Positions 2,388-44,640 of a DNA stretch of 64,000 bases are shown piece by piece. Source of the stretch: an uncultured Chitinophagaceae bacterium (lineage in GTDB: Bacteria; Bacteroidota; Bacteroidia; Chitinophagales; LD1). A program made the translations under genes and the position numbers. The DNA lies in NCBI GenBank assembly GCA_964537475.1, contig CAZIBY010000008.1:4200-68199 (forward strand). The letters are read 5' to 3'. The notes below the pieces were generated by a model. It did no database searches. It was given only the letters and a program-made list of their open reading frames with translations, and had not been told where the DNA came from. Each line of letters opens with the position of its first letter. Within the stretch, counting starts at the first letter, position 1.

Positions 2388-2409
2388 GCAGAATAGGCAG
2401 AAATGATCT

Positions 2410-2437
2410 GAATCAGAATTTGCAGGATTTTAGAATT
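2410..2437. repeat. left arm of the inverted repeat bracketing GxxExxY gene 1
   Basis: gaatcagaatttgcaggattttagaatt. Its reverse complement matches 2885..2912 at 26/28. Both mismatches are G (left) against T (right), which gives G.U pairs in the sense RNA. Confidence 0.85.
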
Positions 2438-2463
2438 GATAGAATTAATGCAGATCAGGGGAG

Positions 2464-2859
2464 ATGGAGAAGGATGAACTAACCTATACTGTCATAGGCT
2501 GCGCCATGGCTGTGTATAATAAGTTAGGTAATGGGTTCCAGGAAGTCATCTATCAGCGGTGCTTAGCCATCGAATTAGGAAAGACAAAACTGAATTTTGC
2601 ACGTGAGATAGAGCACCCTATCTTTTACGATGATATGGAGGTAGGTACCAGAAGAGCCGATTTTATCATAGAGGGTAAATTGGTGGTCGAACTAAAGGCT
2701 ATAATCAATCTTGAAGATGTACACCTGGCTCAAGCCAAAAATTATCTTGTAGCATACCAGTTTCAAAAGGGACTTCTTATTAATTTCGGCGCGACAAGCT
2801 TGCAGTACAAACTAATATTTAATAATAATAGCCAATACAAAGCGGCGACAAAAATCTGA
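2464..2859 (+). CDS. GxxExxY family protein (PD-(D/E)XK nuclease-like fold)
   Basis: GNGFQEVIY matches the GxxExxY motif. ADFII...VVELK gives a D..ExK nuclease-type motif. Length is 131 aa. Confidence 0.85.
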   Translation: MEKDELTYTVIGCAMAVYNKLGNGFQEVIYQRCLAIELGKTKLNFAREIEHPIFYDDMEVGTRRADFIIEGKLVVELKAIINLEDVHLAQAKNYLVAYQFQKGLLINFGATSLQYKLIFNNNSQYKAATKI

Positions 2860-2884
2860 TGCCGGTAGGTTGTATTATTCTGTA

Positions 2885-2912
2885 AATTCTAAAATTCTGT
2901 AAATTCTGATTC
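2885..2912. repeat. right arm of the inverted repeat bracketing GxxExxY gene 1
   Basis: aattctaaaattctgtaaattctgattc. Partner of 2410..2437. ATTCT recurs every 8-9 nt. Confidence 0.85.
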
Positions 2913-2917
2913 CCACA

Positions 2918-3862
2918 ATGTCAGCTATAAAGGATACTCAATTCAATTTTCCCGGCCAGACGGATGTCTATCACGGCAAAGTCCGCGATGTCTATTTTCT
3001 AAAAGATAAATTGATAGCTGTCGCTTCAGACCGTATCTCGGCTTTCGATCACATCCTGCCGAAGCCTATACCCTACAAAGGGCAAGTGCTGAATCAGATC
3101 GCAGCCTACTTTCTCAATGCGACACGCGATATCTGCCCCAACTGGCTGGAGGCCACACCGGACCCCAATGTTTCTATAGGCAAGAAGTGCGAGCCTATAC
3201 GGGTGGAGATGGTGATACGCGGCTACCTGGCAGGCCATTCAGCGCGTGAGTATAAGCTGGGCAAGCGTACGCTCTGCGGAGTAGCGCTGCCGGAGGGGAT
3301 GAGGGAGAATGATAAATTTCCTACACCTATCATCACGCCTGCGGCGAAAGCTATGGAAGGCCATGATGAAGATGCCAGTCGTGAAGAGATACTGGCCAAG
3401 AAGATCGTGACGCCTGAGCAATATGCGAAAATGGAGCAGTACACCTATGGGCTCTTTGCGCGGGGTACGGAGATGGCTGCCAGACAGGGCCTGATACTGG
3501 TAGATACCAAGTATGAGTTTGGCCTGTACAATGGGGAGGTATACCTGATAGATGAGATCCATACGCCGGACTCATCACGCTACTTTTATGCAGAGGGCTA
3601 TGCCGGGCGCCAGGCTGCGGGTGAGCCACAGAAGCAGCTCTCCAAAGAATTTGTACGAGAGTGGCTGATGGCAAACAATTTTGCCGGTAAAGATGGCCAG
3701 ACCATGCCATTCATGCCGGATGATTTTGTGCATACCATCACGGAGCGCTATATAGAGCTGTATGAGCGTGTGACGGGACAGAAGTTTCAGCATGCGGATA
3801 ATTCTGATATCCAGTCGCGCATAGAGAGCAACGTGAAAAAATACCTCGAGTCCGGTATTTAG
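2918..3862 (+). CDS. purC: phosphoribosylaminoimidazole-succinocarboxamide synthase (SAICAR synthase)
   Basis: Long-form PurC signature: [28 protein letters not shown]. Confidence 0.92.
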
Positions 3863-22187: not shown

Positions 22188-22219
22188 TTTGAACCACATA
22201 GGACACATAGATCACATAG
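22188..22219. repeat. left arm of the perfect 32-bp inverted repeat bracketing GxxExxY gene 2
   Basis: tttgaaccacataggacacatagatcacatag. CACATAG occurs at 22195, 22204 and 22213 (9-nt period). Confidence 0.9.
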
Positions 22220-22239
22220 GATATACATTGATACAATTT

Positions 22240-22671
22240 CTACTCATCGGGGAGGTCTTTGTAGGAGTCATTGACAAAGGTTTCCTGACCCAGTTTGAAA
22301 ATATTGTATGCGTTAAAATTAATAACAATTCCTTTGTGTGCCCTGAGCAATGTCATATAACTCAGGACCTGAGCACGATGTATAGGTAATATACTCTCTA
22401 CGGTTTTCAGCTCTACCACAAAACAATCCTCCACCAGTACATCGCATCTGAGGTCTGCCATCACATCTAGTCCTTTATAGACTACGGGGACCGACAGTTC
22501 CGTGCGACAGCGCAGCCCGATCAATCTTAATTCATGCTCAAAACACTTTTGATAGGTACTTTCCAACAGGCCATGCCCCATATGTTTTTGTACCTCGATA
22601 GCAGCACCGATCACCCTGTAGGTTAATTCATCTAGCCACTTCTTGGTTATCCTTGGTTTGTTTTCTTCCAT
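22240..22671 (-). CDS. GxxExxY family protein (PD-(D/E)XK nuclease-like fold)
   Basis: GHGLLESTY matches GxxExxY. CDVLV...VVELK gives D..ExK. By eye it is roughly one-third identical to the 2464..2859 copy. Confidence 0.85.
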   Translation of the reverse strand: MEENKPRITKKWLDELTYRVIGAAIEVQKHMGHGLLESTYQKCFEHELRLIGLRCRTELSVPVVYKGLDVMADLRCDVLVEDCFVVELKTVESILPIHRAQVLSYMTLLRAHKGIVINFNAYNIFKLGQETFVNDSYKDLPDE

Positions 22672-22707
22672 TATAGATTCAAAGTCTAATGTTCTCTGAG
22701 TAAATTT

Positions 22708-22739
22708 CTATGTGATCTATGTGTCCTATGTGGTTCAAA
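22708..22739. repeat. right arm of the perfect 32-bp inverted repeat bracketing GxxExxY gene 2
   Basis: ctatgtgatctatgtgtcctatgtggttcaaa is the exact reverse complement of 22188..22219. It overlaps the stop codon (22735-22737) of the KS gene. Confidence 0.9.
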
Positions 22740-34795: not shown

Positions 34796-35776
34796 TTAGT
34801 GTGCAGCAGCCTTAAACTTCTTCACCTCTTCGATCAGCTTTGGTACTACCTGGAAGGCATCGCCTACGATACCGTAGTCGGCAGCCTTAAAGAATGGCGC
34901 CTCAGGGTCGTTATTGATCACGACGATCACCTTAGACTGATTGACACCTGCCAGGTGCTGAATAGCGCCGGAGATACCGATAGCGATGTAGAGGTTAGGC
35001 TTCACGGTGATACCTGTCTGGCCTACGTGCTCGTGGTGAGGACGCCAGTCTACGTCAGATACCGGACGGGAGCAGGCAGTAGCCGCACCCAGCTCATGCG
35101 CCAGAGATTCGATCATGCCCCAGTTCTCAGGGCCCTTCAGGCCACGGCCTGCAGATACCACGAGGTCAGCCTCAGGCAGTGATATTTCGCCTACAGCCCT
35201 GTCTACAGACTTGACAGTAGTAGTGAAGTCAGCGTCAGATACAGATGCAGAGAACGCCTCCACTGCAGCAGTACCGCTACCCTTCACCGGAGACAGTGAG
35301 TTAGGGCTTACTGCGATCACTTTCTTCTCAGTAGCTACAGCGTAGGTAGCCTTCGCCTTACCAGAGTATACACCCTTGGTAGCGTGCAGTGTCGTACCCT
35401 CAAAGGTAGGCAGTGCATTAGCACCCGGCACATAGCCTGCCTTCAGCCTCACAGAGAGGCGCGGAGCGAGCAGCTTGCCATTTGGGCTGAATGATGATAC
35501 TACTACATTGGCACCGGCCTTCTCTACCGCCTCAGCTACAGCCTTGGTGTGCGCCTTGCTGTCAAACACGTCAAAACGTGCGTCATTGGCGTGGAGTACT
35601 TTCTTGATACCGTAGTTGCCCAGGTTGGCCAGCTCCTCTGCGGTAGCTGTACCGAGCACTACAGCGGCAGCCTCAGTGCCGAGCGTCTCAGCCACTTTAG
35701 CGCCGTAGTACGCTGCCTCATATGAGGTCTTCTTTATTTTGCCTTCAGATACTTCTATAATTGATAATACTGACAT
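34796..35776 (-). CDS. etfA: electron transfer flavoprotein subunit alpha
   Basis: The C-terminal FAD-binding region AGRGLKGPENW...IAIGISGAIQHLAG is classic EtfA. Confidence 0.92.
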   Translation of the reverse strand: MSVLSIIEVSEGKIKKTSYEAAYYGAKVAETLGTEAAAVVLGTATAEELANLGNYGIKKVLHANDARFDVFDSKAHTKAVAEAVEKAGANVVVSSFSPNGKLLAPRLSVRLKAGYVPGANALPTFEGTTLHATKGVYSGKAKATYAVATEKKVIAVSPNSLSPVKGSGTAAVEAFSASVSDADFTTTVKSVDRAVGEISLPEADLVVSAGRGLKGPENWGMIESLAHELGAATACSRPVSDVDWRPHHEHVGQTGITVKPNLYIAIGISGAIQHLAGVNQSKVIVVINNDPEAPFFKAADYGIVGDAFQVVPKLIEEVKKFKAAAH

Positions 35777-35780
35777 GGTA

Positions 35781-35887
35781 TTTCTGATTTTTGATTGTTG
35801 ATTTATGATTTTCAGACTTGAGATATGAGACTTGAGATGTGAGACGAGTGCATTATCTCATGTCTCATGTCTAAAGTCTCACGTCTC
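35781..35887. repeat. etfB-etfA spacer built from three heptad-stutter arrays forming an imperfect hairpin
   Basis: TGATT at 35785/92/99/806. TGAGA at 35819/26/33/40. TCT(C/A) at 35856/63/70/77/84. The TGAGA and TCTCA arrays are mutually complementary. Confidence 0.8.
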
Positions 35888-36628
35888 TTAAATGACCTTC
35901 GCTTCTTCGTGGAGCAATCTTACCAGCTCGCCTACATTGTCCGGGCTGATCATTTTGATCTGCTTGGCCTTGTCTGGCAGTGTGTAGCTGGCTATGGTCG
36001 TCAGTTTGTCTGAGGTGGTAGCGGCTACTACAGTCAGTGGCTTGGTACGGGCGGCCATGATACCTTTCATGTTTGGTATACGGGCTGCGGCCAGGTCCTT
36101 GGTAGCGCAGATCACAGCAGGCAGGGCGATCTCGAGGGTCTCAGTACCGCCTTCTATATCGCGGGTAGCGAGGGCTTTGGTGCCTTCCACTTCCAGCTTA
36201 GATACGAGGGCTACAGCATTCCACTCCAGAGACTCAGCTATCATACCGCCTACTTCAAAGCTATTGTAGTCTATGGTCTCCTTGCCGGTGATGATCAGGT
36301 CGTAGCCACCAGACTTGGCATGCGCCGCGATCTCTACTGCTACCTGATAGGCATCAGTAGGGTCCAGGTCTACACGCACAGCGGTATCTGCGCCTATAGC
36401 GAGCGCCTTGCGGATGATCTGCTCATTGTCTGCCAGGCCTACATTGATAGCCACTACCTCGCCGCCGAGCTTTTCCTTCAGCTCTATAGCGCGGGTCAGG
36501 GCATACCACTCATCAGTAGGGTTCATGATGAACTGTACATTGTCAGTGGCAAATTTCGTGTTATTGTCAGTGAAGGCGATCTTGGATGTAGTATCCGGCA
36601 CCTTGCTGATCGGTACTAATATTTTCAT
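35888..36628 (-). CDS. etfB: electron transfer flavoprotein subunit beta
   Basis: MKILVPISKVPDT... N-terminus and overall EtfB pattern; lies adjacent to etfA. Confidence 0.92.
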   Translation of the reverse strand: MKILVPISKVPDTTSKIAFTDNNTKFATDNVQFIMNPTDEWYALTRAIELKEKLGGEVVAINVGLADNEQIIRKALAIGADTAVRVDLDPTDAYQVAVEIAAHAKSGGYDLIITGKETIDYNSFEVGGMIAESLEWNAVALVSKLEVEGTKALATRDIEGGTETLEIALPAVICATKDLAAARIPNMKGIMAARTKPLTVVAATTSDKLTTIASYTLPDKAKQIKMISPDNVGELVRLLHEEAKVI

Positions 36629-40255: not shown

Positions 40256-40322
40256 GTCTTAGGAGGCCGAACATACGCTATTCTAAGGGAAGGATATTAA
40301 CATGAATTGCACAGAGCCGAAT

Positions 40323-40778
40323 TCATTTTAAAAGTATCAGTTGGACATGGTAGCTGTCTAGTTCATTATAGTAATATCTTAAAGGCAATGTGTCGTTAAA
40401 AGTTACATTAAGGCGGTGAGTGATTCGGTTGAGATGACTCGGGCCGTTAAAAACATATTCATTTATTATGTATTGGAGCATATCCTCTTTTGTGATTGGA
40501 TTTATAGTGCATACCGTATCCCGGTAAGCCGCAAACTCTAATGTGGCAGAAGTGTCAGAAAAACCGAATCGTATGGGATGCCCATCCTGATAACAGTCTG
40601 GATCATCTACTGCTGTCAGATTAAGTGTGTCAATTTTGCGTAGATCAGGATTGTCAGGAAAACAAATTGTAGTCTGCCATGGAAATCGGATCAGCGCTGC
40701 CGGTTTAGAATGGCATCCTCCCAAAAGTATCGAACTAATCAGGTAGATAGGCAAAAGGAAAAAATGAACATACTTCAT
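40323..40778 (-). CDS. lipoprotein, hypothetical
   Basis: MKYVHFFLLPIYLISSILLGGC, a lipobox. No recognisable domain. Confidence 0.45.
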   Translation of the reverse strand: MKYVHFFLLPIYLISSILLGGCHSKPAALIRFPWQTTICFPDNPDLRKIDTLNLTAVDDPDCYQDGHPIRFGFSDTSATLEFAAYRDTVCTINPITKEDMLQYIINEYVFNGPSHLNRITHRLNVTFNDTLPLRYYYNELDSYHVQLILLK

Positions 40779-40854
40779 TGGCTGTTTTACTTATAATTCA
40801 AAATAGGACCAGAAAGTCACAGATTTTTGGATTTTAAATCGCTTTATTATTCTT

Positions 40855-40893
40855 TGCATTGTCTAATATCTAAAGTCTATCGTCTAACGTCTC
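40855..40893 (+). repeat. TGCATTGTCTAA-headed heptad array (5 x nnnTCTM) directly upstream of the trmH-like start
   Basis: ttgtcta atatcta aagtcta tcgtcta acgtctc. It has the same head and unit as the arrays at 35849-35887 and 43136/43189-43223. Confidence 0.75.
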
Positions 40894-40898
40894 GCTCC

Positions 40899-41444
40899 AT
40901 GCGCAAACTCCAAAACTCAGAGCTCACCCGCCTCACCCCTGAGCAGTTCAAAGCTAATGAGAAGCTACCCGTCATCATCGTGCTGGACAATGTCCGCTCG
41001 CACCTGAATGTCGGCTCTGTCTTCCGCTCTGCAGATGCCTTTCTCATAGAGGCCATCTACCTCTGCGGCATCACCGGCACACCCCCGCACCGCGACATTC
41101 ACAAGGCCGCCCTCGGCGCCACAGAGACTGTAGAGTGGAAATACTTTGACACCACCGCAGCAGCCATAGACAAACTCAAAACCAAAGGCTATCAAATTGC
41201 CTCCATAGAGCAAGCCGAAAACGCCACCATGCTCCACGATCTGAACTACGCAGGAGAAAAACTAGCCTTAGTATTCGGCAACGAAGTAGACGGCGTAGAC
41301 CAGCAGATCGTCACCGCCTCTGATAAAGTAATAGAGATACCACAATACGGCACCAAGCATTCACTCAATATCTCAGTATCGGTAGGGATTGTTTTGTGGG
41401 AGATCGCCAGGAATACAGGTATCACAGAGCGCACAAAGGTTTGA
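40899..41444 (+). CDS. TrmH/SpoU family RNA 2'-O-methyltransferase
   Basis: SpoU motifs VLDNVRSHLNVGSVFRSADAF, LVFGNEVDGV and IPQYGTKHSLNISVSVGIVLWE. The Met at 40899 is preferred over the track start. Confidence 0.85.
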   Translation: MRKLQNSELTRLTPEQFKANEKLPVIIVLDNVRSHLNVGSVFRSADAFLIEAIYLCGITGTPPHRDIHKAALGATETVEWKYFDTTAAAIDKLKTKGYQIASIEQAENATMLHDLNYAGEKLALVFGNEVDGVDQQIVTASDKVIEIPQYGTKHSLNISVSVGIVLWEIARNTGITERTKV

Positions 41445-41492
41445 GTAAAACAGCCAATTTGAGAACACAAAGCAACTACGTTACTTCTCCAT

Positions 41493-41665
41493 GACCTCAA
41501 ACAATCAGCTTTATGAGTTAGAAAATCTCTATGAACTCTGTGTAGTAAGGCTGTTGAGTTTGTATTCCTCCGTGATCTCAAACAATCAGCTCTATGAGTA
41601 ATAAAACCTCTGTGTCCTCTGTGATAAAGGCCGTTCAAACTCTGAGCCTCTGTGTAGTAAACCTC
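41493..41665. repeat. tandem repeat of about 81 bp (2 full copies plus a partial third) in a convergent spacer
   Basis: Copy A starts at 41493 and copy B at 41574. They share ctcaaacaatcagct.tatgagt...ctct.tg...ctctgtg and are about three-quarters identical by eye. CCTCTGTG 8-mers occur at 41607 and 41616 (9 nt apart) and again at 41647. Confidence 0.75.
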
Positions 41666-43043: not shown

Positions 43044-43050
43044 GGAGTTT

Positions 43051-43223
43051 CGGATGTCGGATTTTGATTTCGGATAAACGGGTGTTGGATCCTTTTATTT
43101 CAGTGCTTGATTTTTATTTCTTGATTCTTGGTTCTTGCATTGTCTCACTACTCATTCCGAAGCCTCGGGACGCACTACTCAATACCACAAGTCTCACGTC
43201 TCAAGTCTCTCATCTTACGTCTC
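43051..43223. repeat. lpxC-fabZ / lpxA spacer built from heptad stutters
   Basis: CGGA at 43051/58/71. TCTTG at 43119/26/33. Head TGCATTGTCTCA at 43136-43147. The array aagtctc acgtctc aagtctc tcatctt acgtctc spans 43189-43223. Confidence 0.75.
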
Positions 43224-44640
43224 ATTCGCTTTGCTTCGCCGCCAGCTTCTTCCTGTCTACTATCTGTGCCATCAGCTCGGCCTCGGCCACCAGCTTATTG
43301 CCTACATAGGCGCTGCCCTTCATCTCTACCAGCCCGCGGCGGATAGGAGAGAGGAGCTCCAGTTTGAAGATGATCGTATCTCCCGGCACTACCTTGTGCT
43401 TGAACTTTGCCTTGTCTATCTTCAGGAAATAAGTGTCGTAGTCCTCCGGATTAGTGACTTCCTGCAGCACGAGTATACCACCCGTCTGCGCCATCGCCTC
43501 TATCTGCAGCACACCCGGCATCACCGGGTTGCCCGGGAAGTGCCCGTTAAAGAATTCCTCATTGATCGTCACATTCTTTACACCCACCACGGTCTTCTTA
43601 TCCACGTGGATGATCTTATCGATCAGCAGGAATGGATACCTGTGCGGCAGCAGCTTCTTGATGCCCTCAGAGTCATACACCGGCGGTTTGCTCGGATCGT
43701 ACTCAGGGGAGTTGTCATGCTGGCGTGTCTTTTTGATAAAGGCCTTCAGCTTCTTGGCAAACTCTACGTTAGACTTATGGCCCGGACGTGTAGCGATGAT
43801 ATTCGCATTGACCGGCGTGCCCACGAGGCCCAGGTCACCCACTACATCCAGCAGTTTGTGGCGCGCAGGTTCATTAGCATGGCGCAGCTTTACATTATTC
43901 AGGATGCCTTCTTCCACTACTGTGATATCAGGCTTATTAAACATCTTTTGCAGCTTGGTCATCTGCGGCTCGCTCACCGGCTTGTCTACGATCACGATCG
44001 CGTTATTCACGTCACCACCCTTGATCAGGCCTGCGTCATACAGCATCTCCAGCTCATGCAGGAAGCAGAAAGTACGTGCCGATGCGATCTCCTTTTTGAA
44101 TTCACCCACCTTATTCAGCGAGGCGTGCTGCTGGCCCAGTACATCAGACTTGTAGTCTATCATGGTAGTGACGCGGTAGTGGTCACTCGGCATAGCCAGT
44201 ATCTCTACGCCATTTTCTTTGTCTACAAAGTTCATCGTGGTACGCAGCTCAAACACATCTCTATGCTCCGACTGCTCCTGTATACCGTTCTTCTCCAGCG
44301 CCTCTATGAAGGGCTCCGAGCTGCCATCCAGTATCGGTACCTCCATGCCATCCAGGCCTATCAGCACATTGTCTACCTGCAGGCCTACGAGGGCCGCCAT
44401 CAGGTGCTCCACCGTGGCTACTTTCACACCGTTTTTCTCCAGCGTAGTGCCGCGATCTACAGAGGTCACCAGGTCGCAGTCAGCAGGGATGATCGGCTGG
44501 TCGGGCAGGTCCGTCCTCTGAAACTTTACGCCATGATTGGCCGGAGCAGGATGAAAGGTCAGCGTGACATGCTGGCCGGTATGCAGTCCTACACCACTCA
44601 TGGTGAACTCCTGCTTTATGGTTTGCTGAAATGAATTCAT
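43222..44640 (-). CDS. lpxC: bifunctional UDP-3-O-acyl-GlcNAc deacetylase / 3-hydroxyacyl-ACP dehydratase
   Basis: LpxC N-terminus (QQTIKQEFTMSGVGLHTG...) fused to a FabZ C-terminus (FNGHFPGNPVMPGVLQIEAMAQ). This fusion is typical of Bacteroidota. Confidence 0.95.
   Translation of the reverse strand: MNSFQQTIKQEFTMSGVGLHTGQHVTLTFHPAPANHGVKFQRTDLPDQPIIPADCDLVTSVDRGTTLEKNGVKVATVEHLMAALVGLQVDNVLIGLDGMEVPILDGSSEPFIEALEKNGIQEQSEHRDVFELRTTMNFVDKENGVEILAMPSDHYRVTTMIDYKSDVLGQQHASLNKVGEFKKEIASARTFCFLHELEMLYDAGLIKGGDVNNAIVIVDKPVSEPQMTKLQKMFNKPDITVVEEGILNNVKLRHANEPARHKLLDVVGDLGLVGTPVNANIIATRPGHKSNVEFAKKLKAFIKKTRQHDNSPEYDPSKPPVYDSEGIKKLLPHRYPFLLIDKIIHVDKKTVVGVKNVTINEEFFNGHFPGNPVMPGVLQIEAMAQTGGILVLQEVTNPEDYDTYFLKIDKAKFKHKVVPGDTIIFKLELLSPIRRGLVEMKGSAYVGNKLVAEAELMAQIVDRKKLAAKQSE

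Follow-up and report, generated by a model that had tools for sequence, protein, structure and literature searches.

A gene-less heptamer-repeat hairpin in the etfB–etfA spacer of a Chitinophagaceae bacterium and its possible relation to repeat-armed gene cassettes

Results

We analyzed a 64,000-nt stretch of DNA (hereafter the window) from an uncultured Chitinophagaceae bacterium (GenBank assembly GCA_964537475.1, contig CAZIBY010000008.1, positions 4,200 to 68,199), and in particular the spacer between the genes for the two subunits of the electron transfer flavoprotein, which holds three arrays of heptamer repeats. Both genes lie on the minus strand, etfB (beta subunit, 246 amino acids) at 36628..35888 and etfA (alpha subunit, 326 amino acids) at 35776..34796, and they are identified by their open reading frames (ORFs) and by matches to NCBIfam families (the ETF-beta families for etfB) and to PF01012 (ETF) and PF00766 (ETF_alpha), respectively; that the two genes are essential and co-transcribed is an assumption. 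The spacer is 111 nt long (35777-35887), and the gene calls place no ORF inside it. On the mRNA strand its order is UAA – (K-AGAC-nn) x ~4.7 – AAUGCACUC – (RUCU-M-nn) x ~4.5 – GAAAAUCAUAAAUCAACAAUCAAAAAUCAGAAAUACC – AUG.

Two of the arrays are the arms of a hairpin, and all parts of the spacer are given here for the minus strand. The 5' arm (35855..35887; (K-AGAC-nn) heptads, a TCTC/TCTA array on the plus strand) begins 0-1 nt past the stop codon of etfB, whose TAA at 35888-35890 in plus-strand numbering directly abuts the hairpin, and the 3' arm (35813..35845) consists of (RUCU-M-nn) heptads, a TGAGA array on the plus strand; both arms are delimited by Tandem Repeats Finder, by the inverted repeats and by the predicted folds. 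The loop between them (35846..35854, AAUGCACUC in the mRNA), placed by alignment and direct reading, is homologous to longer loops in related genomes (ATACAAATG in L081 and ATACAAAATGCATT in L001 and L162, where L numbers denote loci of relatives) and holds a remnant of the palindrome AATGCATT. The remaining part (35777..35812) is the leader of etfA, an A-rich, G-poor (AAUCAnn) x4 array, TGATT on the plus strand, which is recognized both by Tandem Repeats Finder and in alignments and ends about 3 nt (window 35780) ahead of the etfA ATG. According to Tandem Repeats Finder, 35780-35812 is a period-7 array of 4.7 copies and 35856-35887 one of 4.6 copies, and the middle array, 35814-35845, is a 14-nt unit in 2.3 copies.

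An earlier note on this DNA had described the spacer as three heptad arrays that together form one structure. Its motif positions are all correct (TGATT at 35785/92/99/806, TGAGA at 35819/26/33/40 and TCTC/TCTA at 35856/63/70/77/84), as is its loop, gagtgcatt at 35846-35854 of the plus strand, and the second and third arrays do pair with each other. The three arrays are not one unit, however: the TGATT array is a separate, conserved leader and the hairpin a separate insert, since the leader is nearly unchanged among relatives while the hairpin is hypervariable. The plus strand also has a 48-amino-acid ORF (35867-36013), probably spurious, which begins within the hairpin arm and overlaps the 3' end of etfB in antisense.

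An inverted-repeat search finds five pairing registers between the second and third arrays, including 35834-35845/35876-35887 at 11/12 complementary. For this register 11 Watson-Crick pairs and one G.U pair had been claimed, and the 11 pairs hold; the twelfth position is T.G on the plus strand but an A.C mismatch in the etfBA mRNA, because the plus strand is antisense to etf. The whole hairpin is about 75 nt long without an ORF, with arms of 26-33 nt at 81-88% complementarity. Folded alone as RNA, it reaches -30.9 kcal/mol in the mRNA sense (z -4.6) and -35.9 kcal/mol on the plus strand (z -4.9); with its flanks the mRNA-sense fold reaches -33.1 kcal/mol with 25 pairs (z -4.8, and none of 200 shuffles equals it), and as DNA the two values are -14.7 and -16.2 kcal/mol (z about -3). 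The slippery, imperfect hairpin that had been proposed from arrays two and three is therefore borne out, with several pairing registers and z of about -4.6 to -4.9.

Short-period arrays number 18 in the window against 3.1 in Markov simulations, a sixfold excess, and (AGACnnn)3 with at most one mismatch has 11 matches against 0.31 expected, all within three spacers. Four of the eight longest inverted repeats in the window reach at least 80% complementarity, namely the etf hairpin, two cassettes that carry GxxExxY genes (see below), and a pair (41420-41447/41599-41626) that flanks the spacer 41445-41665. We give almost no credence to the explanation that nothing specific lies here, that is, an intrinsic terminator or attenuator, an internal promoter or chance low-complexity DNA, to which the position of the hairpin behind a stop codon and its low-complexity sequence might point. 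The mRNA downstream of the stem, GAAAAUCAUAAAUC, lacks the U-tract of an intrinsic terminator, and a terminator and promoter scan finds none within the spacer; chance is excluded by the shuffles and simulations, and the structure is retained in relatives. Rfam covariance models give no match at E <= 1 between 30000 and 46000 of the window. The observation itself is thus confirmed as real and non-random.

To place the hairpin among its closest counterparts we compared it with the same spacer in related genomes. Logan contig L161 matches the window at 100% identity. Over 4.1 kb the DNA of L162-164 is ~95% identical to it, with no difference in the EtfB protein, and EtfB identity is 99% for L001 (metagenome-assembled genome, MAG, SZAS-58) and 89% for L081. 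Across the 4.1 kb of the close-relative comparison, the sole block below 65% identity is 35805-35901, i.e. the hairpin; the coding sequence on either side is near-identical, as is the (AAUCAnn)4 leader, and the alignments show the leader kept in L001, L162-164 and L081. The hairpin exists as two alleles, one with GAGAC/GTCTC arms (allele A: the window, L161 and L081) and the other with TAGAC/GTCTA arms (allele B: L001 and L162-164). All seven aligned spacers keep the tetramers AGAC and GTCT unchanged at a 7-nt period, with variable 3-nt linkers in between. The base that precedes AGAC and the one that follows GTCT switch jointly, from G:C in allele A to U:A in allele B, in 3-4 heptads, and RNAalifold marks two of these switched pairs as compensatory. 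All four variants fold (-33.1, -30.5, -23.8 and -23.2 kcal/mol, with z -4.8, -5.6, -3.65 and -2.6). The 5' arm of L162-164 equals that of L001 plus two heptads, so that variation in heptad copy number among close relatives, which the earlier note had proposed to look for, is seen here as a 14-nt difference.

The loops of the two allele types are homologous and in the same orientation (ATACAAATG in L081 and ATACAAAATG in L001), which implies that the alleles diverged in place. An inversion of the hairpin between the window and L001 was also considered, for which a global alignment is ambiguous (47 direct, 52 inverted), and was rejected because the loops of L081 and L162 are homologous in the same orientation. 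The approximately eight parallel substitutions, set against a 5% background, would hardly be independent point mutations, and we infer that a concerted process is needed, either homogenization through slippage together with templating of one arm by the other, or conversion from copies elsewhere in the genome. A walk of 10 kb from lpxA yielded no further etf allele; two other MAGs differ in synteny beyond mutS.

The etfB–etfA spacer varies widely beyond this clade. Among 150 such spacers the median length is 43 nt, with 72 of at most 40 nt, 37 of 41-80 nt, 38 of 81-250 nt and 3 longer than 250 nt, and relatives with 90% EtfB identity may have wholly different spacers. Of the spacers of 60-260 nt, 19 of the 52 tested fold with z < -3, and their arms are built from lineage-specific units (TTTACGA/TTTAGAT, GCAAATG, ATAACTC, GATAAT and others). 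For the 24 spacers with a predicted stem-loop, the median distance from the etfB stop codon to the stem is 1.5 nt and that from the stem to the etfA ATG is 24 nt; in the clade of the window the stem leaves a 35-43-nt leader free.

Some of these spacers hold elements of another kind. A ~230-nt element with a conserved core CTTCCGTTGCGTCGCACTCTTGTACGTTCAGTTCTTTA between GC-rich terminal inverted repeats CCCCCTGTCCCCCTAAAGGGG is present in the etf spacers of L108, L115, L117 and L127, and L128 and L075 (170- and 195-nt etf spacers) have its left GC-rich end and core only. In other genera the core of this element lies between stutter arms (arms of short-period repeats), as in L047, L055, L076, L125, L151 and L158, with the reverse complement in L125, and L108 and L128 each hold a second copy at another place. 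No Rfam family matches it, and the window does not contain it. The conserved core GTTGCGTCGCAC of the etf spacers of other genera is absent from the window.

A selected regulatory RNA, in which the stem-loop would determine how stable or how well translated etfB and etfA are relative to each other (by being a processing site, a stabilizer of the etfB 3' end or a translation decoupler), would fit the retention of foldability through sequence turnover with G:C to U:A double changes, the stem that begins at the stop codon and leaves the leader free, and the persistence of the element in L081. We nevertheless consider it improbable. The 72 relatives with spacers of at most 40 nt have no hairpin, and the mRNA sense is the more stable one in just 9 of the 24 spacer hairpins (Wilcoxon p=0.21), which leads us to reject selection on the sense-strand RNA as judged by G.U asymmetry; in the clade of the window it is the antisense strand that folds better. 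Compensatory change can also arise without selection through quasi-palindrome template switching, an established mutational mechanism. With no sense-strand bias and no match to a terminator, a promoter or an Rfam family, the independent regulatory element that the earlier note had offered as one possibility is unsupported.

Heptamer arrays are abundant in the group as a whole. In 795 kb of Chitinophagales loci we count 121 period-7 arrays against 2.3 expected, compared with 30 period-6 and 33 period-8 arrays, and period 7 is thus specifically favored. At least 66% of the period-7 arrays fall in the intergenic 12% of the sequence, and 32 of the 64 arrays that flank start codons lie within 15 nt of the start, these being A/U-rich and G-poor on the sense strand. 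Stutter arrays, counted against a control as had been suggested, are therefore far above chance in number both in the window and in the larger sample, where the period-7 arrays are enriched between genes. Other stutter hairpins or arrays lie in further spacers of unrelated Chitinophagaceae, at 1746-1937 of L158, 1600-1720 of L038, 483-651 and 4394-4538 of L055, 5112-5218 of L045 and 5204-5321 of L060, with units such as (GGGAGTC)n/(GACTCCA)n, (GGCAGAC)n, (ACAGGTT)n/(AACCGGT)n and others. An Rfam search of eight related loci returned only miRNA-precursor matches, on the stutter hairpin of L158, which we judged spurious.

The heptamer arrays could also be tandem sites for a protein that binds single-stranded nucleic acid (Csp-, S1- or CsrA-like, or specific to the lineage), with the hairpin as a by-product. 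The invariance of AGAC and GTCT at a 7-nt period amid varying linkers, the over-representation of period 7 and the half of the start-flanking arrays that lie close to the start codon would agree with this, and binding by S1, Csp or CsrA has been proposed for heptamer repeats, with one CspB per heptamer noted (PMC4679880), while heptamer deletion is reported to affect expression in Nostoc (bioRxiv 10.1101/2022.06.06.494920). The units, however, are wholly different between genera, with at least three unit classes in the window and no common recognition motif, and the continued complementarity of the arms is left unexplained, so that we regard this explanation as very unlikely.

The AGAC module of the etf hairpin recurs at two further places, giving three AGAC-module sites in the window. 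A half-element (GAGACnn) x5, detected by Tandem Repeats Finder and a motif scan, lies at 43188..43224 on the minus strand directly after the lpxC/fabZ stop codon; the lpxC/fabZ–lpxA spacer (43044-43221) continues with an AATGCA boundary motif at ~43133-43138 and then a (CAAGAnn) leader array. In ten assemblies with identical LpxA (L165-L174) this spacer occurs in four forms of 113-190 nt, among them (TAGACnn)5-AATGCA and (TAGTAGT)n, and that of L168 is the window form plus 7 nt, exactly one heptad. The other half-element, TGCATT + (GTCTAnn) x5, lies at 40855..40893 on the plus strand and ends 6 nt ahead of a SpoU/TrmH-type methyltransferase gene, whose ATG is at 40900. The half-element agrees with the 39-mer of TGCATT plus TCT heptads at 30/39 positions in the window (plus strand, 35849-35887) and at 31/39 on the mRNA strand of L001. 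A module of (KAGACnn)~5 + AATGCA thus recurs at lpxC–lpxA and upstream of SpoU, with G/T variants and with strains that differ by one heptad. It does not occur in the other fetched loci, except for an unrelated GGCAGAC array in L038.

Other spacers near these sites are variable as well. The convergent spacer at 41445-41665, flanked by the SpoU gene and a gene for an ABC ATPase, has two ~100-nt tandem units with a CACAGAG-type stutter CACAGAGGACACAGAGG that resembles the GxxExxY cassette arm CACATAGGACACATAG, and strains with identical LpxA have versions of this spacer of between 28 and 221 nt; it may derive, without the gene, from the GxxExxY cassette type with CACATAG arms. Gene content between SpoU and mutS varies among close strains (window 40296-40925 compared with L191, L193 and L194), in that the window has a 151-amino-acid ORF whose N-terminus resembles a signal peptide, L194 and L196 have a PIN_12/PIN_8 protein, L191 has a 348-amino-acid ORF and L193 an extra one of 253 amino acids. 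Beyond mutS synteny differs, and two MAGs are without the etf operon there.

Inverted short-period repeats also flank genes in the window. GxxExxY cassette 1 (22188..22739, minus strand) has an ORF at 22240-22671 (TIGR04256, E=3.6e-35) between 32-nt arms of CACATAG units that are 100% complementary, and cassette 2 (2397..2925, plus strand) has an ORF at 2464-2859 (tblastn, PF13366) between 49-nt arms of AGAATT / ATTCTGTAA units that are 80% complementary. The second GxxExxY gene is 37% identical to the first and its arms are unrelated to those of the first. The layout of both is upstream stop codon, arm, ORF, arm, leader and ATG, and the etf hairpin does share with them, as the earlier note had claimed, inverted short-period repeats that start from the upstream stop codon and are followed by an A-rich leader.

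Orthologues of the cassette at 22.2 kb are found at 2442-2983 of L179 (protein 81% identical) and, at 67% identity, at 2443-2984 of L180 and in L181. The arms differ between the three lineages, that of the window included, even in period, yet are 100%, 100% and 97% complementary; a 9-nt unit has been lost from one of the two arms in L179. At unrelated sites (L183 1412-1950 and L185 1469-1942), homologous GxxExxY genes have the same AACCACATAG...ACATAG / CTATGT...CTATGTGGTT arms, which indicates that arms and gene move as one unit in that GxxExxY lineage. These comparisons are evidence for a mobile cassette in which the stutter arms would co-evolve with the GxxExxY gene. An orthologous empty site for the GxxExxY cassettes of the window was sought through exact-protein look-ups of the flanking genes and of the acyl carrier protein, which gave only the same strain, and the KAS-site cassette is present in all retrievable relatives. 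Three Logan contigs from the source organism (L175, L176 and L177; SRR24111727) stop at the arms of both GxxExxY cassettes, 24-96 nt from the flanking genes, which suggests that arms or cassettes are repeated or heterogeneous enough to break assembly.

The three longest etfB–etfA spacers (L046 3245-3707, L121 and L130 1371-1865) enclose a gene themselves. Each has a co-oriented gene for a four-helix-bundle protein of 118-123 amino acids, of the 23S intervening-sequence (IVS) protein family (TIGR02436, E=1.6e-23), between heptad arms of the (GGATAAT)n- / (ATTATCC)n-type. A cassette in this spacer in some relatives, one of the checks proposed earlier, is thus found in other Chitinophagaceae. The left arm of L130 has an alternative partner 8 nt away and hence alternative foldings. 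In L039 (1786-2294), just downstream of etfA, TTTATGG/CCATAAA arms enclose a degraded ORF, a candidate four-helix-bundle gene judged by the reading of its sequence. All cassettes seen are co-oriented with their neighbors; a Jackhmmer search of 874 kb of loci recovers five clear cassette genes, too few for orientation statistics beyond the fact that all are co-oriented. A literature search on GxxExxY, PDDEXK_3 and IVS-protein returned no description of inverted heptamer arms around these genes, or of gene-less versions in operon spacers.

These cassettes raise the possibility that the etf hairpin is a collapsed or empty cassette, from which a GxxExxY or four-helix-bundle gene was deleted between the arms, or a pre-formed landing pad for one. 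The same spacer is filled by a four-helix-bundle cassette with heptad arms in L046, L121 and L130, the decaying ORF of L039 is still flanked by heptad arms, the layout of stop codon, arm, payload, arm, leader and ATG is identical, and the gene-less CACAGAG-type spacer at 41445-41665 resembles the arm of the CACATAG cassette. Against this, the hairpin-bearing variants sampled (window/L161, L081, L001 and L162-164) are gene-less in four of four cases, with mutually homologous loops of 9-25 nt that hold no ORF remnant, and the AGAC/GTCT units are unrelated to the arms of the two cassettes in the window. The GxxExxY arms travel with their own gene, contrary to a pad that resides at the site, and no orthologous filled and empty pair was retrieved, since the look-ups of flanking genes matched only the strain of the window itself. 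We therefore see a collapsed cassette as unlikely, while granting it a somewhat better chance than a regulatory RNA.

Discussion

The etf element is new in form but falls within the known kinds of heptamer repeats, of repetitive extragenic palindromic (REP) sequences and miniature inverted-repeat transposable elements (MITEs), and of IVSs. The short tandemly repeated repetitive (STRR) heptanucleotides of cyanobacteria are said to go back to Mazel and colleagues in 1990. Intergenic heptamer repeats by start codons, with 7-nt insertions and deletions, have been described in Bacteroidetes, cyanobacteria and Beggiatoaceae (TAACTGA-type; MacGregor 2015, PMC4679880). The etf spacer resembles these in its tandem intergenic 7-nt units, in an array right upstream of a start codon without a Shine-Dalgarno sequence, in strain differences that are multiples of 7 nt and in the several unit types per genome. 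It differs in having two inverted arrays that form a stable hairpin and in its units (AGACnnn and AAUCAnn rather than TAACTGA), and in this group the same kind of array also forms the arms of GxxExxY and four-helix-bundle cassettes.

With REP sequences and bacterial interspersed mosaic elements (BIMEs), and with MITEs such as the Correia elements of Neisseria, which are processed by RNase III in mRNA, the hairpin shares the form of a short, non-coding, imperfect palindrome with terminal inverted repeats, placed in an operon spacer just past a stop codon and presumably co-transcribed. REP palindromes of 20-40 nt lie in many copies between co-directional genes, and three sites with the AGAC module occur in the 64 kb here; presence and sequence vary among strains. 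The etf arms, in contrast, are internally periodic and pair in several registers, and no GTAG head is visible in them, such as REP sequences have along with an associated RAYT (IS200/IS605-like) transposase.

In 23S rRNA, an ORF of the S23p family lies between 28-bp inverted repeats at which RNase III cuts (PMC4990558). Such IVSs (Coxiella, Leptospira, Salmonella) have a stem of terminal inverted repeats, of at least ~20 bp, around a four-helix-bundle (S23p family) ORF or nothing, and are embedded in, and co-oriented with, a host transcript whose function is needed. The 25 pairs of the etf stem and the TIGR02436 ORFs in L046, L121 and L130 agree with this description. Unlike an IVS, the etf element resides in an mRNA operon spacer and not in helix 25/45 of 23S rRNA, its arms are stutter repeats and the window copy is without an ORF.

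Transposons such as Ac/Ds, CACTA, Tn7 and Mu have ends with multiple transposase-binding repeats. The ends of several short inverted motifs seen here are similar, and across insertion sites of the GxxExxY lineage a conserved arm motif accompanies the protein. The comparison differs in that there is no recognized transposase: GxxExxY has only a predicted PD-(D/E)XK fold, the four-helix-bundle protein has no nuclease fold, and mobility is deduced from sequence.

On balance, we think that the etf hairpin is probably a gene-less, palindromic heptamer element of the MITE, REP or IVS kind, beside a conserved leader, and that it is near-neutral or selfish. Under this reading the 36 nt by the etfA start would be a translation-initiation leader without a Shine-Dalgarno sequence, built from heptamer repeats and of a type common in this group, and between it and the etfB stop codon a ~75-nt imperfect palindrome, (AGACnnn)n – loop – (nnnGUCU)n, would have lodged. 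The palindrome would be a gene-less member of a lineage-wide class of stutter-armed inverted repeats, whose architecture in Chitinophagales also encloses genes for GxxExxY (PD-(D/E)XK-like) or four-helix-bundle (23S-rRNA-IVS-protein family) proteins, co-oriented with the host operon. Size would change by slippage in steps of 7 or 14 nt, and concerted change of the arms could come from quasi-palindrome template switching or gene conversion, or from exchange with other genomic copies, which would keep the element foldable while its sequence turned over far faster than the flanking genes. Presumed co-transcription would put a ~25-bp stem-loop between the cistrons of the etfBA mRNA, and by analogy with rRNA IVSs, REP sequences and Correia elements the stem is a plausible site for RNase III or a barrier to 3'-exonucleases. 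It may be tolerated because the etfA leader is left intact. The hairpin is most likely selfish or near-neutral and not a dedicated regulator, and the interpretation given in the earlier note is partly supported.

Several observations weigh against this explanation. No direct repeat that could be a target-site duplication flanks the hairpin and no empty/filled pair was seen; L002-L004, which have no hairpin, have diverged too far for an empty site to be recognized. The more distant L005 and L006 have just a one-sided (GTCTAnn)4 array, in the leader, so that the hairpin could have grown in place by inverted duplication and not by insertion. About six variable intergenic blocks occur in 20 kb of this species pair, and with such frequent intergenic turnover hypervariability alone is not special to the etf site. 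No cassette with AGAC/GTCT arms is present in the 64 kb and the ~20-kb flanks of this species, and what links hairpin and cassettes is therefore their common architecture and the evidence from other genera. As RNA, the antisense strand in this clade is 5-16 kcal/mol more stable, the mismatches being A.C in the mRNA and G.U in the antisense, and comparison of sense and antisense folds of the 24 spacer hairpins gives no signal of selection.

A broader proposal would unite the stutter-armed hairpins and the GxxExxY and four-helix-bundle cassettes in one IVS-like mobile family, and taken with all its parts we hold it to be doubtful. Its elements would colonize the operon spacers of Chitinophagales (perhaps also those of cyanobacteria and Beggiatoaceae) and ride on host transcription. 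Fold-back of the arms would excise or insulate the element at the RNA level, and the arm repeats would be multi-site arrays for the encoded protein. Gene-less hairpins would be MITE-like derivatives, and intergenic heptamer repeats the footprints of such elements.

Conclusions

Bacterial intergenic heptamer repeats, such as STRR sequences and the TAACTGA repeats of Beggiatoa and Bacteroidetes, have been known for decades with neither their origin nor their function explained, and the genes for GxxExxY and for four-helix-bundle (23S-IVS) proteins make up very large families whose biology is not known. The locus described here joins three roles of short-period repeats, as a leader without a Shine-Dalgarno sequence, as the arms of a gene-less hairpin in a core metabolic operon and as the arms of cassettes with orphan genes, and its arms co-evolve to remain complementary amid turnover. 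In practical terms, stutter arms break short-read assemblies. The main interest lies in the exposed link between heptamer repeats and two large orphan gene families. If this link is true, it would provide a testable model, in which mRNAs carry IVS-like elements that RNase III processes or that the protein they encode binds, and a mechanism for the fast evolution of spacers in Bacteroidota.

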